From an uncultured Pseudomonadales bacterium (GTDB lineage: Bacteria > Patescibacteriota > Microgenomatia > UBA1400 > PJMF01): 64,000 bases of DNA. The notes beneath the pieces are model-generated. The model was not told the origin of the DNA. It worked only from the letters and a program-made list of their open reading frames with translations, and made no database searches. Location: assembly GCA_964637295.1 (NCBI GenBank), contig CAZWWE010000001.1:252312-316311 (forward strand), in the 5' to 3' direction. Below are positions 4,683 to 8,118 of the stretch, piece by piece (within the stretch, counting starts at the first letter, position 1; every line of letters begins with the position of its first letter). The translations under genes and the position numbers were made by a program.

Positions 4683-5132
4683 ATGAAAAAGAAACTTTTC
4701 TTTTTGACTTTTAGTTTTTGGTTGTTTAGTCTGATTTTTAATTTTTTTACTCCCTCAATCGCTCAAGCCATCCAACTAGCCGACGTCGGCAATCCTGGCA
4801 GAGACGCTTCAGATTTGGTGCAAATGGAAAGCGTTTCTATTCCTTTGAGCAATAAACTGATTTTAAAAGATGGAACTCCTGTCAAAAATGTTTTTGATAG
4901 CACTGACGACATGCTAAATTTACTAGTCAAAGTTTTATTTGTCGGAGCTGGATTAGTTTTATTTTTGATGATTATCACTGCTGGCTTTGCCATGATCGCT
5001 GGTGATAGTAAAGATAAAGACAAGGCAAAAAACACCATAACAACTGCGGCGATTGGCTTTATCGTTATGTTTGCCGCCTATTGGATTATGCAAATTATTG
5101 AAATATTAATTGGCACCAACTTGAATTTTTAA
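4683..5132 (+). CDS. VirB2/TrbC-like pilin paralog 1 (signal peptide plus two-helix hydrophobic hairpin)
   Basis: Signal peptide MKKKLFFLTFSFWLFSLIF...AQA. C-terminal hairpin LVLFLMIITAGFAMIAGDSKDKDKAKNTITTAAIGFIVMFAAYWIMQII, shared with eight other ORFs in the window. Confidence 0.6.
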   Translation: MKKKLFFLTFSFWLFSLIFNFFTPSIAQAIQLADVGNPGRDASDLVQMESVSIPLSNKLILKDGTPVKNVFDSTDDMLNLLVKVLFVGAGLVLFLMIITAGFAMIAGDSKDKDKAKNTITTAAIGFIVMFAAYWIMQIIEILIGTNLNF

Positions 5133-5174
5133 TTAAAATCAACTAAGAAATGAATAACAAAAATAGTTTATAAT

Positions 5175-5633
5175 ATGAAACTACAAATGATTAAAAAAAG
5201 CTTAATTGCCGCCAGCCTGGTCTTAACACTTCTCTTGAATGCTCATCAGGTTAATGCTCAAACCAATAATTCTGGGAGTAGTGTTTTTGGCCCCATTGAA
5301 GCACCGGCGGGCGTGGCAGAGCTTAATAAACAGGCTGGTGTAAACAGCAACAACATTGGTTTATTAATTTTTGTTTCCAACATGATTAAATTGGCTTCAG
5401 TGGTAGCTGGCGTCTGGGTTTTATTTAATTTTATTAGTGCTGGTTTCACCTATATTACTTCAGCTGGCGACAGCAATGCTTATGCAAAAATTGGTGAAAA
5501 ACTGGCCCTTAGTGCCACTGGCTTAGTACTGATCGTGGCGGCTTATACCATCGCTGGCATCATCGGTCTGATTATTTTTGGCAATCCCACTTATATCCTT
5601 AATCCACAAATACCAAGTGCGATCGGAACATAA
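5175..5633 (+). CDS. VirB2/TrbC-like pilin paralog 2
   Basis: Signal peptide, then core VWVLFNFISAGFTYITSAGDSNAYAKIGEKLALSATGLVLIVAAYTIAG. Confidence 0.6.
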   Translation: MKLQMIKKSLIAASLVLTLLLNAHQVNAQTNNSGSSVFGPIEAPAGVAELNKQAGVNSNNIGLLIFVSNMIKLASVVAGVWVLFNFISAGFTYITSAGDSNAYAKIGEKLALSATGLVLIVAAYTIAGIIGLIIFGNPTYILNPQIPSAIGT

Positions 5634-5636
5634 ATT

Positions 5637-5993
5637 ATGGCAGACATTGGCTCAATTCAACCAGTTACAGAAGCAAGAGCTCCTAAAAGTTTAGATGGAG
5701 CAGGCTTTATTGATTCTTTAGAACTTTACATCAGTGATATTGTGGGCACTATTACTGCATTGGCGGTTTTATTTTTTATTGTTTATTCTTTTTTAGCAGC
5801 TTATGAATGGGTAACTGCTGGCTCTGATAGTGGCAAAGTCGAAAAAGCCAAAAATCGTTTTATTTGGGGGACTTTGGGATTGATTTTAATTGTAGCCACC
5901 TATGCTATTTTGGGATTGATTGGCACTTTGGTGGGAATTTCCGTCCTTGAGCCAGGTGAGCTGATTAACAATATTGTTCCGAAAACAAAATAA
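5637..5993 (+). CDS. VirB2/TrbC-like pilin paralog 3 (no obvious signal peptide)
   Basis: Core AYEWVTAGSDSGKVEKAKNRFIWGTLGLILIVATYAILG. Starts 4 nt after paralog 2. Confidence 0.55.
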   Translation: MADIGSIQPVTEARAPKSLDGAGFIDSLELYISDIVGTITALAVLFFIVYSFLAAYEWVTAGSDSGKVEKAKNRFIWGTLGLILIVATYAILGLIGTLVGISVLEPGELINNIVPKTK

Positions 5994-6010
5994 GTTGAAT
6001 AAACCACATT

Positions 6011-6439
6011 ATGAAAACTATTAAAACTAAAATCTTGGCTTTCGTTTTAAGTAGCGGACTTTTTTTAAGCCTGGCTTCTTTGGCTCAAGCAGCCATTACC
6101 AATCCCGTAGTCGGCAATCTTGGCACCAATGAAGGCACGAAAGACGGCAGTAAATTTATTAATTACGTGGTTTACCTGTGGAAAGTGAGCATAAATTTAG
6201 GAGCCTTAGCAGTGATCGCCTATTTTATCTGGGGAGCTATAGAGTGGATCACTGCGGGAAGCGACAGTAAAAAAACTGAACAAGCCAGACAAAGAATGAC
6301 CAATGCAGTAATTGGTTTGGTTATCCTCGTCTCTTCTTTTACACTCTTAAGCTTTATTAGTAAAATCTTCTTTGGTGATAATTTTGATTTATTAAAATTA
6401 ACTCTTCCCACTCCTGTGGGCATCCAACCTTATGACTAA
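6011..6439 (+). CDS. VirB2/TrbC-like pilin paralog 4
   Basis: Signal peptide MKTIKTKILAFVLSSGLFLSLASLAQA. Core AIEWITAGSDSKKTEQARQRMTNAVIGLVILVSSF. Confidence 0.6.
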   Translation: MKTIKTKILAFVLSSGLFLSLASLAQAAITNPVVGNLGTNEGTKDGSKFINYVVYLWKVSINLGALAVIAYFIWGAIEWITAGSDSKKTEQARQRMTNAVIGLVILVSSFTLLSFISKIFFGDNFDLLKLTLPTPVGIQPYD

Positions 6440-6770
6440 ACAACTTGCTCTTACTCTCGACATTGCCGGTGAAGCGCAAAGCCAAGACTTGCAAGGCTCA
6501 CAGTTTCATAACTCCAGCGATGGAGGCTTTGGCATTTGGCTCAGCAATATCATGACTGTCGCCATGACTTTGGCGGCTATTTTGGTTCTCTTTTTTATGG
6601 TTTGGGGAGCCATCGAGTGGATCACTTCCGGAGGTGACAAGGGTAAAATAGAAAGCGGACGCAACAAAATCAGCAACGCCGTGGTTGGCTTAATTGTTTT
6701 AGCAGCTACCACCGCCCTATTTTTAATCGTTGAAGAATTTTTAAACATCAATGTTTTGACTTTCAATTAA
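6432..6770 (+). CDS. VirB2/TrbC-like pilin paralog 5
   Basis: Core AIEWITSGGDKGKIESGRNKISNAVVGLIVLAATTALF. Overlaps paralog 4 by 8 nt. Confidence 0.55.
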   Translation: MTKQLALTLDIAGEAQSQDLQGSQFHNSSDGGFGIWLSNIMTVAMTLAAILVLFFMVWGAIEWITSGGDKGKIESGRNKISNAVVGLIVLAATTALFLIVEEFLNINVLTFN

Positions 6771-6831
6771 AAATTCATTAAACTTGATGTATAATAAGAT
6801 TTGGAATTTAGTAATTAAAAAGGAGCGATTT

Positions 6832-7236
6832 ATGAAATCAATTAAAAAATTTGCTTTGGCAACAGGCGCTGCTTTAAGTGGCGTTTTGAGCACCGTCTCG
6901 ATGGCTATGGCTGAAGTTAACATCGAACCTATTGACACTGGCAAAGGTTATGCCACTAATTTCGGCACTATGTTTAGTTCAATCTTGAACGTAGTTATGT
7001 TGATCGCCGCCATTTTGGTTTTTGCTTACATGATTTGGGGTGGCGTTGAGTGGATCACTTCAGGAGGTGACAAGGGTAAAGCCGAAAGTGCGCGCAACAA
7101 ATTAACTGCCGCCATTATTGGTCTCGTCATTATCGCTGCTTCCTACGCAGTGGTCACCCTGGTTGTTCAATTCTTAGGCTTTCAAGATTTTAATGACGTA
7201 TTTAATAATGTTGGAGACATCAATAATCCACGTTAA
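6832..7236 (+). CDS. VirB2/TrbC-like pilin paralog 6 (candidate major pilin)
   Basis: Start placed at the internal ATG after a strong RBS (AAAAGGAGCGATTT-ATG). The ORF track starts at 6784. Signal peptide MKSIKKFALATGAALSGVLSTVSMAMA. Core GVEWITSGGDKGKAESARNKLTAAIIGLVIIAASYAVV. A strong intrinsic terminator follows. Confidence 0.6.
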   Translation: MKSIKKFALATGAALSGVLSTVSMAMAEVNIEPIDTGKGYATNFGTMFSSILNVVMLIAAILVFAYMIWGGVEWITSGGDKGKAESARNKLTAAIIGLVIIAASYAVVTLVVQFLGFQDFNDVFNNVGDINNPR

Positions 7237-7261
7237 GTTAAATCAATTATCAGTCATTGAA

Positions 7262-7295
7262 AAAACCCGCTTCACAAAAAGCGGGTTTTTTGGTT
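7262..7295 (+). terminator. Rho-independent terminator after pilin paralog 6
   Basis: AAAAAACCCGCTTcacaaaAAGCGGGTTTTTTGG: a perfect GC-containing stem followed by a T-tract. Confidence 0.75.
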
Positions 7296-7350
7296 CATCA
7301 TAGTTTTACTTTGCAGAAAAAAAATTATAAAGTTATAATAAATCTCAATC

Positions 7351-8118
7351 ATGCAAATTATTCCTGAGGCTCAAGCACAAACTCAACAATGGTCAACGAT
7401 TAATAGCGCTTGCGTCAGTCAAGACGGTGTGGCCACCATACAAGGAATTGGTTGTTTATTGGCCAACGTTTTTTCTGTCTTCCTAACAATTTTGGGCATT
7501 GTGGGTTTTATTATGATTATTTACGCAGCCTTCAACTTGATGATCATGGGTGGCAACAGCCAAGCAACAGAAAAATCCAAAAACACCATTACTTACGCCG
7601 TGATTGGCATTATCCTGGCTCTTTCAGCCTTTATCATTATTAATTTAATTGCTAGCTTTACTGGTTTGGAAATTATTAAAGACTTTGTCATTCCTGGTTC
7701 TGGAAAAGATTGGACTACAAATTCTTCTATACAGCAGCCTAGCCAAAATACAAATAATAGTCTCATACAAACAACTACTCCCAATCCCACCACAACGACT
7801 AAGCCAGAAAAAGTTTCTACAGAAAGTGATCCTTGTATAAACAATGGTGGGTACTGCACTCAAACAGTGACTTCTGGTTCAGACAAACTAAAATGTAGTG
7901 TTTATTGTTGTAATGGCTACCACTCAGAATCTGGAGGATTAAAAATATGCGGACCAGCTGGAGTTTCTGCTGATCCGGCAATTACGGTTTTATTTCCAAA
8001 TGGTACTCCATGTGCAATTACTATTACTTCTGGAAGCACTCTTCCCAAATGCACAAAGTATTGCCGCAACGGCTACCACCCCACCTCAACTGGCGCTTAC
8101 GAGTGCGGACCGAGCTAA
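7351..8118 (+). CDS. VirB2-like pilin hairpin fused to Thr/Pro linker and duplicated Cys-rich C-terminal module
   Basis: N-terminal hairpin IVGFIMIIYAAFNLMIMGGNSQATEKSKNTITYAVIGIILALSAFII. Linker TTTPNPTTTTKPEK. Two ~40-aa Cys-rich repeats (CTQTVTSGSDKLKCSVYCCNGYHSESGGLKICGP / CAITITSGSTLPKCTKYCRNGYHPTSTGAYECGP). Confidence 0.55.
   Translation: MQIIPEAQAQTQQWSTINSACVSQDGVATIQGIGCLLANVFSVFLTILGIVGFIMIIYAAFNLMIMGGNSQATEKSKNTITYAVIGIILALSAFIIINLIASFTGLEIIKDFVIPGSGKDWTTNSSIQQPSQNTNNSLIQTTTPNPTTTTKPEKVSTESDPCINNGGYCTQTVTSGSDKLKCSVYCCNGYHSESGGLKICGPAGVSADPAITVLFPNGTPCAITITSGSTLPKCTKYCRNGYHPTSTGAYECGPS

Follow-up and report, generated by a model that had tools for sequence, protein, structure and literature searches.

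Does a tandem array of pilin-like genes encode interchangeable surface proteins, or a fixed set of subunits that each have a place in one structure? The question is raised by a 64-kb stretch of the chromosome of an uncultured, ultra-small and host-dependent member of the Patescibacteria, which was analysed as a whole and is called the window here. Seven consecutive genes in the window (W1-W7, numbered in order) encode small paralogs resembling pilins of type IV secretion systems (T4SSs), and two distant copies (W8 and W9) are found in the same window. The preliminary description had read the array as a single operon for a variable surface filament or adhesin repertoire. Our comparison with related genomes showed, at the level of sequence, that the seven paralogs, together with W8 and W9, form an ancient set whose members are ordered, non-interchangeable and subject to purifying selection throughout the class Microgenomatia. 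We propose, with somewhat more confidence than doubt, that the array encodes the structural subunits of a heteromeric filament or conduit associated with the T4SS, in which W6 is the major subunit, the others are fixed minor subunits, and W8, W9 and the tail of W7 carry display domains.

The seven open reading frames (ORFs) of 112-255 aa were found on the plus strand exactly where they had been placed before. W1 (4683..5132, 149 aa) consists of a signal peptide, an ectodomain of about 50 aa and the hairpin described below. Signal peptides were also found on W2 (5175..5633, 152 aa), W4 (6011..6439, 142 aa) and W6 (6832..7236, 134 aa), whereas W3 (5637..5993, 118 aa), W5 (6432..6770, 112 aa) and W7 (7351..8118, 255 aa) are without one; this division into four and three, already described, agreed with an n-region/h-region/AxA heuristic. 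The W6 ORF is open from 6784, but the start is most likely the ATG at 6832, because an AAAGGAG element precedes it, an exact database match (P0001) has the corresponding 134 aa, and the gene calls in related contigs agree. The 8-nt overlap of W4 and W5 was borne out. The gaps of 4 to 13 nt given for the array were not, since the actual spacings are 42, 3, 17, -8, 13 or 61, and 114 nt.

In all nine proteins, hydropathy analysis showed a pair of hydrophobic helices, joined by a short polar loop, close to the C-terminus, and this module of two transmembrane (TM) helices could be aligned without gaps across the seven and W8/W9. The shared motif had been claimed for all seven, and here the claim holds only in part: W2-W6 show the loop motif I-T-x-G-G-D-x-x-K-x-E clearly, and W1 and W7-W9 have degenerate forms of it. 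In W7 the module occupies approximately residues 1-110, and the whole protein contains 12 Cys. A hidden Markov model (HMM) of the module matched exactly nine proteins in the 64 kb, with E values of 1e-23 to 1e-34, and nothing else, so the count of nine copies stands and their sequence similarity is far beyond chance. Pairwise identity of the hairpin modules is nevertheless low, with a mean of 24% and a maximum of 49% between W5 and W6.

The paralogs were compared with their counterparts in L001, L003, L004, L005, L007 and L088 and in the close strains L084 and L085. The relatives, which were anchored on UppS, are metagenome-assembled genomes (MAGs) of Microgenomatia (Woese-, Gottesman-, Shapiro-, Collier-, Beckwith- and Pacebacteria), and the nearest relatives of both UppS and the pilins are MAGs of this class. 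Reciprocal best matches of W1-W7 were one-to-one and collinear for 7/7 genes in L001, L003, L004, L005 and L007, and W8 and W9 mapped to an adjacent two-gene pair in the relatives. The seven-gene array adjoins uppS in L001, L004, L005 and L007; most other Microgenomatia loci have it a few kb further off, and there the two-gene pair abuts uppS. The one-to-one positional orthologs are kept even where UppS is only about 53% identical, and the number of copies stays at seven, or at seven plus two.

A neighbor-joining tree of the hairpins (88 columns, seven genomes) gave the same picture. Every array position was monophyletic, with bootstrap values of 100, 100, 77, 85, 83, 92 and 100 for W1 to W7, and no genome formed a clade of its own; therefore the duplications predate the divergence of these lineages. 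W5 is the sister of W6 (bootstrap 91 for the joint clade), and W2 is the most divergent member of the family.

The orthologs are also about as conserved as the flanking housekeeping genes. Against L088, identity is 79-90% for W3-W7 (85% for W3), 72% for W2 and 61% for W1, the fastest-evolving of the seven, compared with 78% for UppS, 81% for ValS, 87% for RecF and 57% for the Nudix protein. W6 is the most conserved paralog, with ortholog identities of 90% in L088, 84% in L001 and 55-60% in L004, L005 and L007. The N-terminal regions indeed differ between paralogs, as had been noted, but they are not hypervariable between genomes: the ectodomains are only slightly less conserved than the hairpins (pooled pN/pS 0.20 and 0.13, identity 75% vs 86%), and their pN/pS ranged from 0.15 to 0.29 in three closer comparisons. 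The near-identical strains L084 and L085 show few, mostly synonymous changes and no variation in copy number, the tail of W7 excepted. The suggested check of related genomes for variation in copy number or sequence thus gave no support to a hypervariable repertoire for the seven, which are fixed and in order.

The reading as hypervariable exposed regions does hold for the parts that have been added to the hairpin, and in the sequences compared variability is confined to these appended domains. The C-terminal extension of W7 is lineage-specific and consists of a T/P/N/Q-rich linker and two Cys-rich repeats (approximately residues 165-255; tail at about 7840-8118). W7 orthologs outside the closest strains are 120-150 aa long and lack the tail, which is absent in relatives at UppS identity of 78% or less. 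In strain L084 (L084:10520-11020), an internal deletion of about 290 bp removes the tail, and a 60-nt remnant is left downstream of the new stop codon. The other two cases are the distant copies on the minus strand. W8 (38764..39657, 297 aa from the ATG at 39657; PF18895 32.7 bits) joins the pilin module to a 190-aa N-terminal domain of Cys-rich repeats of the form CG...C.C...CCG(W/F)...QC, the number of which varies (3 vs 2); the hairpin is 83-88% identical in relatives vs 38-41% for the N-terminal domain. W9 (39659..40510, 283 aa; PF18895 29.6 bits) shows the same contrast, with 89-93% identity for the hairpin vs 33-54% for the N-terminal domain, which is confidently predicted to be a β-sandwich resembling macroglobulin (MG) or immunoglobulin (Ig)-like domains. 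The extensions follow the signal peptide in W8 and W9 and stand at the C-terminus in W7, and their presence at either end fits a topology with both termini outside the cell.

One paralog was set apart from the others by its predicted expression signals. The spacer between W5 and W6 (6771..6831, plus strand) contains a promoter-like element found by a promoter scan (CTTGATGTATAAT; TTAAAA-17-TATAAT) and a strong Shine-Dalgarno sequence, AAAGGAG. An intrinsic terminator follows W6 at 7260..7295 (plus strand), composed of an A-tract, a 13-bp stem (7260-7291) and a U-run. The strong terminator described after this paralog was verified by folding (-18.8 kcal/mol, z = -5.3), although a consensus terminator scan missed it, possibly since the stem runs into A/U tracts. 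The punctuation was compared in seven genomes, namely the window, L088, L001, L004, L005, L007 and L003. In all seven, W1-W5 are closely spaced for the most part, and the spacer 5' of the W6 ortholog is kept at 44-129 nt with TTGAC and TGnTA(T/C)AAT elements and AAAGGAG; in the six relatives, too, the ortholog is followed by a GC-rich hairpin and a T-run. W7 is preceded by a separate promoter-like site (7310..7339, plus strand; TTTGCA-18-TATAAT, promoter scan), and its orthologs are also preceded by a TATAAT box. In every genome examined, only the W6 ortholog combines a promoter-like element, a strong ribosome-binding site and a terminator of its own. A single operon, as first described, is unlikely because of the promoter-like element and Shine-Dalgarno sequence before W6, the terminator after it, and the promoter-like site before W7. 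Since W6 is the most conserved paralog and its promoter-like spacer, AAAGGAG and strong terminator are conserved in the seven genomes, we propose it as the major subunit and the other paralogs as minor subunits.

The pilin reading was supported at the level of curated families and literature usage. With the whole proteins, the gathering threshold of PF18895 (T4SS_pilin; 26.6 bits) was passed by 8/9 copies, namely 6/7 of the array together with W8 and W9. The scores in the array were 36.2 bits for W1, 35.1 for W3, 37.8 for W4, 35.6 for W5, 34.6-35 for W6 and 32.8 for W7; W2 alone was below the threshold (20.9 bits, E = 3.8e-4), and its place in the family comes from its ITSAGD loop motif, its position and the tree. 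PF18895 also matched 92/98 array members from relatives. The HMM searches suggested in the preliminary description thus returned a pilin family, while PF04956 (TrbC/VirB2) stayed below threshold. The other outcome that had been envisaged, assignment to a non-pilin family such as holins or immunity proteins, did not occur: a Pfam scan of the array found no holin, phage or immunity family at E = 0.001, and a scan against PHROGs gave only two marginal matches, to families of unknown function (E of about 0.005). The part of the pilin reading that rests on PF18895, on the T4SS in the window and on published usage therefore stands, and the part that implies direct homology to VirB2/TrbC is weak.

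The strongest match outside Pfam was NF045849 of NCBIfam, a pilin-like conjugal transfer protein of mycoplasma integrative and conjugative elements (ICEs). It scored 10-32 bits (E 6e-8 to 0.5) across the seven, with 25-32 bits and E <= 1e-5 for 5/7 and a best score of 32.2 bits for W7, all below the 40-bit cut-off. This Mbov_0395 family is likewise a small two-TM hairpin protein encoded beside a monoderm-type VirB4, and differs in being a single gene rather than an array. PrgF of pCF10 was considered as a member of the same family and was dropped, as its weak Pfam matches (Maff2/DUF4134) and a score of 3.4 bits to the array HMMs were not significant.

Arrays of this kind have been published, and they are termed VirB2-like pilins of Patescibacteria in PMC12102498 and PMC12857230. 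In a survey of 3,035 Patescibacteria genomes with PF04956 and PF18895, Quinonero-Coronel et al. (2025; PMC12102498) defined an array as pilin genes in tandem or with one non-pilin gene between them and counted 441 VirB2 arrays in 383 assemblies, with 2-11 genes each and the greatest abundance in Microgenomatia and Saccharimonadia. Identity within those arrays had a mean of 25% and a maximum of 54%, a pilin gene was near virB4 in 1135/1948 assemblies, and the diversity was read tentatively as possible versatility in host range. Our locus fits this description in every respect tested: it is a tandem PF18895 array of seven plus a pair, with a monoderm-type VirB4 near dnaA and a mean identity close to the published one. 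The features that set it apart are the fixed positional orthologs, the conserved punctuation of W6 and a conserved sigma factor gene of the extracytoplasmic function (ECF) type beside the array, none of which was found in a published report on such arrays in our literature search. A closely similar case is Ca. Southlakia epibionticum ML1, in which six tandem PF18895 genes (SEML1_0014-0019, 104-186 aa) accompany an essential T4SS, and the T4SS and the pilin series were found to be essential (Wang et al. 2023; PMC10633639). This organism belongs to the class Saccharimonadia, and its array lies inside the T4SS cluster rather than 14 kb away.

According to a 2025 FEMS review, these arrays are the sole case of VirB2-like subunits in a monoderm T4SS, with the function left open; recent reviews call the role of the patescibacterial T4SS completely unknown and the pilin arrays its most surprising feature. 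The T4SS is among the few systems shown to be essential to the epibiotic life of Patescibacteria. The locus itself is one further example of the published kind, and it is the comparison that changes how such arrays are read, from repertoires to fixed, ordered sets of distinct subunits, with W6 singled out by its expression signals and with variability only in the appended domains. It also suggests candidates for the backbone of a filament, for tip or adaptor subunits, and for domains that may determine host specificity.

By analogy with VirB2 systems and with sets of major and minor pilins, we infer the following steps for the proposed heteromeric assembly. Each protein would enter the membrane as a hairpin whose two ends face outward and whose slightly basic loop faces inward, and the signal peptide would be cleaved in 4/7. 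The VirB4 ATPase and a platform of VirB3- and VirB6-like proteins would then extract the subunits and assemble one heteromeric pilus-like filament or conduit. W6 would be the abundant major subunit, and W1-W5 and W7 would be minor subunits present in small amounts, with roles in priming or as tip, base or adaptor, similar to those of type IV pili and the pseudopili of type II secretion systems. In W8, W9 and W7 the conserved hairpin would serve as the anchor from which the fast-evolving Cys-rich or Ig-like domains are displayed and make contact with the host cell.

Several known systems resemble parts of this scheme. Classical VirB2/TrbC (the Agrobacterium T-pilus and TrbC of RP4) has the signal peptide, two hydrophobic helices and short polar loop, and is extracted from the membrane by a VirB4-dependent machine. 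Here, in contrast, the loop has 7 additional residues and a T-x-G-G-D motif, three paralogs are without signal peptides, the genes are not in a virB1-virB2-virB3 operon, and nine distinct subunits rather than one are encoded in a monoderm cell. Type IV pili and type II pseudopili combine an abundant major subunit with divergent, structurally similar and non-redundant minor subunits that are encoded together, some with adhesive domains; however, their fold and assembly machine are unrelated, and the parallel would be one of function only.

A number of observations weigh against a VirB2-type filament of this composition. PF04956 (gathering threshold 27.9 bits) had no match in W1-W7 and only a sub-threshold one in W8 (20.5 bits); it was reached by 4/98 relatives at E <= 0.01 (best 2.8e-5), none above the cut-off, and CagC by 1/98. 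When a profile of 98 array sequences was compared by hhalign with eight annotated VirB2/TrbC proteins of MPF-T plasmids, the alignment covered 59 columns with TM1, loop and TM2 in register, but the score was weak (E = 0.022, probability 2%). Hence direct homology to classical VirB2/TrbC is only weakly supported by sequence. The suggested structure predictions gave a confident hairpin for W6 (AlphaFold2; helices 41-76 and 81-114, pLDDT of about 90) and a hairpin for W9 (helices 204-236 and 241-275), but the fold is generic: Foldseek of the W6 model against the PDB returned only generic helical hairpins, none with E < 1, and weak matches included both the Aeropyrum Ced conjugation pilus (8dfu, TMt 0.65) and ATP synthase c (0.64). 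Comparison of such models cannot discriminate between two-helix hairpins, and a W6 family profile found no meaningful match among all PDB sequences. The signal peptides were called by the simple heuristic only, and the division into major and minor subunits comes from predicted regulatory signals and conservation. Per-gene dN/dS values (0.04-0.13) are qualitative only since dS was saturated (1.2-2.8 or undefined at 78-90% identity), and we gave more weight to pN/pS, to the very close strains with their few substitutions, and to identity measured against housekeeping genes. Monoderm (Gram-positive) T4SSs are normally without pili (PMC12102498), and in the literature searched no T4SS-dependent filament of these proteins was reported for any patescibacterium. 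Finally, the scoring of each of SEML1_0014-0019 as essential by transposon sequencing, with the stand-alone pilin SEML1_0024 non-essential (PMC10633639, Table S1), speaks for a fixed paralog set, but it can reflect polar effects, which are possible for small tandem genes.

The main rival follows from some of these points. The hairpins may be membrane-embedded parts of the T4SS that form no pilus, for instance a heteromeric ring, a channel lining or a short wall-spanning stalk, like the two-TM proteins of Gram-positive conjugation systems. We consider this rather unlikely. It would agree with the usual lack of pili in Gram-positive T4SSs, with the mycoplasma ICE protein as the strongest sub-threshold match outside Pfam, and with a fold that matches ATP synthase c as well as a conjugation pilin. 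PrgF of pCF10 is a similar two-TM hairpin, but has no significant sequence match to the array. In addition, the filaments isolated from M. amalyticus, a member of Saccharimonadia, were identified as unrelated Pam pilins. On the other hand, the signal peptides, the ectodomains of 25-50 aa and the large fused Cys-rich or Ig-like domains argue for surface exposure, and the fact that a single paralog has a promoter and terminator to itself suggests a subunit that polymerises and is highly abundant. The Pam pilus (2026 preprint) was itself considered as an identification of the array and rejected as an unrelated system, with Ig-fold subunits and donor-strand exchange.

An improbable explanation of the seven genes is a repertoire of interchangeable alternative pilins that would serve antigenic variation or a fit to different host strains; the same has been proposed for the virB2 arrays of Bartonella and Anaplasma. 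The divergent tandem VirB2 paralogs of Anaplasma phagocytophilum and Bartonella also stand beside a T4SS for host interaction rather than conjugation, and their arrays are thought to serve antigenic or host-range variation, whereas fixed, distinct roles are argued here. The low identity between paralogs and the differences in length and sequence of their N-terminal regions would be expected of such a repertoire, and the possibility is raised in PMC12102498. However, the positional orthology across distant relatives, the stable copy number, the few and mostly synonymous substitutions between close strains outside the W7 tail, the low pN/pS of the ectodomains, and the essential score of each Southlakia tandem pilin are all against it. 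As judged from these comparisons, the variable-repertoire explanation is largely excluded for the seven, while hypervariability does hold for the extra domains of W8 and W9 and the tail of W7.

It is very improbable that the genes encode small membrane proteins unrelated to the T4SS (holin-like, bacteriocin-immunity or envelope-stress proteins) under the adjacent ECF sigma factor: the distance from virB4, the housekeeping neighbours, the sigma factor beside the array in 12 genomes and the weak VirB2 homology could be read in this way, but holin, phage and immunity matches were absent from the family scans, W8/W9 end the conserved gene stretch that continues from the T4SS genes, pilin genes are often near virB4 in the published survey, the Southlakia array is inside a T4SS cluster, and there are cross-matches to TrbC and CagC.

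The heteromeric T4SS-associated assembly may also be stated in a bolder form, in which all nine hairpin proteins build one heteromeric VirB2-type filament or conduit on a monoderm cell, with W6 as the major subunit, six minor subunits that predate the radiation of Microgenomatia, two or three displayers for host recognition and perhaps control by the ECF sigma factor. This form is tentative, and we regard it as doubtful in its entirety. If true, it would be the first multi-subunit T4SS pilus with a division of labour between major and minor subunits, and a candidate for the structure by which epibionts contact or feed on their hosts.

Divergent from W1, the minus strand encodes the ECF-type sigma-70 factor (4064..4630; TIGR02937, 64 bits). 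In 12 related loci its gene lies directly against the W1 end of the array, and 8/12 of these loci are not adjacent to uppS. Two small membrane proteins, orf68 (1 TM) and orf114 (2 TM), are predicted downstream of it (3527..4071, minus strand); the pair is syntenic in L084, L088, L001, L004 and L007 and is possibly an anti-sigma module. In several genomes the W1 start codon is preceded, at a distance of only 8-12 nt, by a TATAAT box, which suggests that the W1 transcript is near-leaderless.

The bacterium is assigned to Microgenomatia (Patescibacteria, or candidate phyla radiation), and gene content indicates a chromosomal monoderm-type T4SS (MPF-FATA-like) around dnaA in the window. The array is about 14 kb from virB4, between housekeeping genes and beside uppS and the sigma factor, and W8/W9 stand at the end of a conserved, largely unannotated stretch continuing from the T4SS genes. 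The T4SS genes listed next are on the minus strand. The VirB4-type ATPase (21889..24228) matched NF045971 (CD1110 family) with 399 bits (cut-off 325), as well as TraG P-loop and CagE_TrbE_VirB families, and is located immediately upstream of dnaA. At higher coordinates come a TrsD-like protein (24080-25243, match below the curated cut-off), a PrgI/VirB3-like protein (25268-26122, family match), a protein with one predicted TM helix (26209-27192), and a protein of 1246 aa (27185-30925) that ends in an M23 peptidase domain (match below the curated cut-off). A membrane protein with seven predicted TM helices (33246..34910) had no family match in the library scans and is a candidate VirB6-like channel subunit by position and topology. 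A VirD4-like coupling protein (50258..52486; TrwB_AAD_bind 51.6 bits, cut-off 20.5; TraG-D_C 24.6 bits) lies about 10 kb beyond W9. The ORFs scanned, which are part of those in the window, included no relaxase.

Further observations were made in the window. The virB4 gene lies 96 nt upstream of dnaA-dnaN (18807-24228, minus strand), and the cumulative GC skew has its minimum at 18-20 kb; therefore the T4SS is located at the replication origin, as reported for many Patescibacteria. A 719-aa protein without a family match is encoded inside the T4SS neighbourhood on the plus strand (31026-33185). It is only 26% identical to its much longer positional counterparts (1075 and 923 aa), whereas its neighbours are 57-68% identical. 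The gene is fast-evolving and possibly encodes an effector or surface protein. No tRNA, rRNA, riboswitch, leader or other RNA family was matched anywhere in the 64 kb when Rfam was searched at its gathering thresholds. The minus-strand gene at 439-1530, on the border of the syntenic block, encodes a conserved protein (62-94% identity) that combines a Fic/DOC domain with a DeoR-type helix-turn-helix at its C-terminus. A 977-aa DUF4012 protein with one TM helix (13143-16076, minus strand), between the genes for ribosomal protein L25 and RNase H, is kept in relatives (976 aa in L088). The plus-strand gene at 59887-60660 encodes a type IV pilin-like protein with an N-terminal methylation motif; thus, in addition to the T4SS pilins and separate from them, components of a type IV pilus or pseudopilus are present in the genome.

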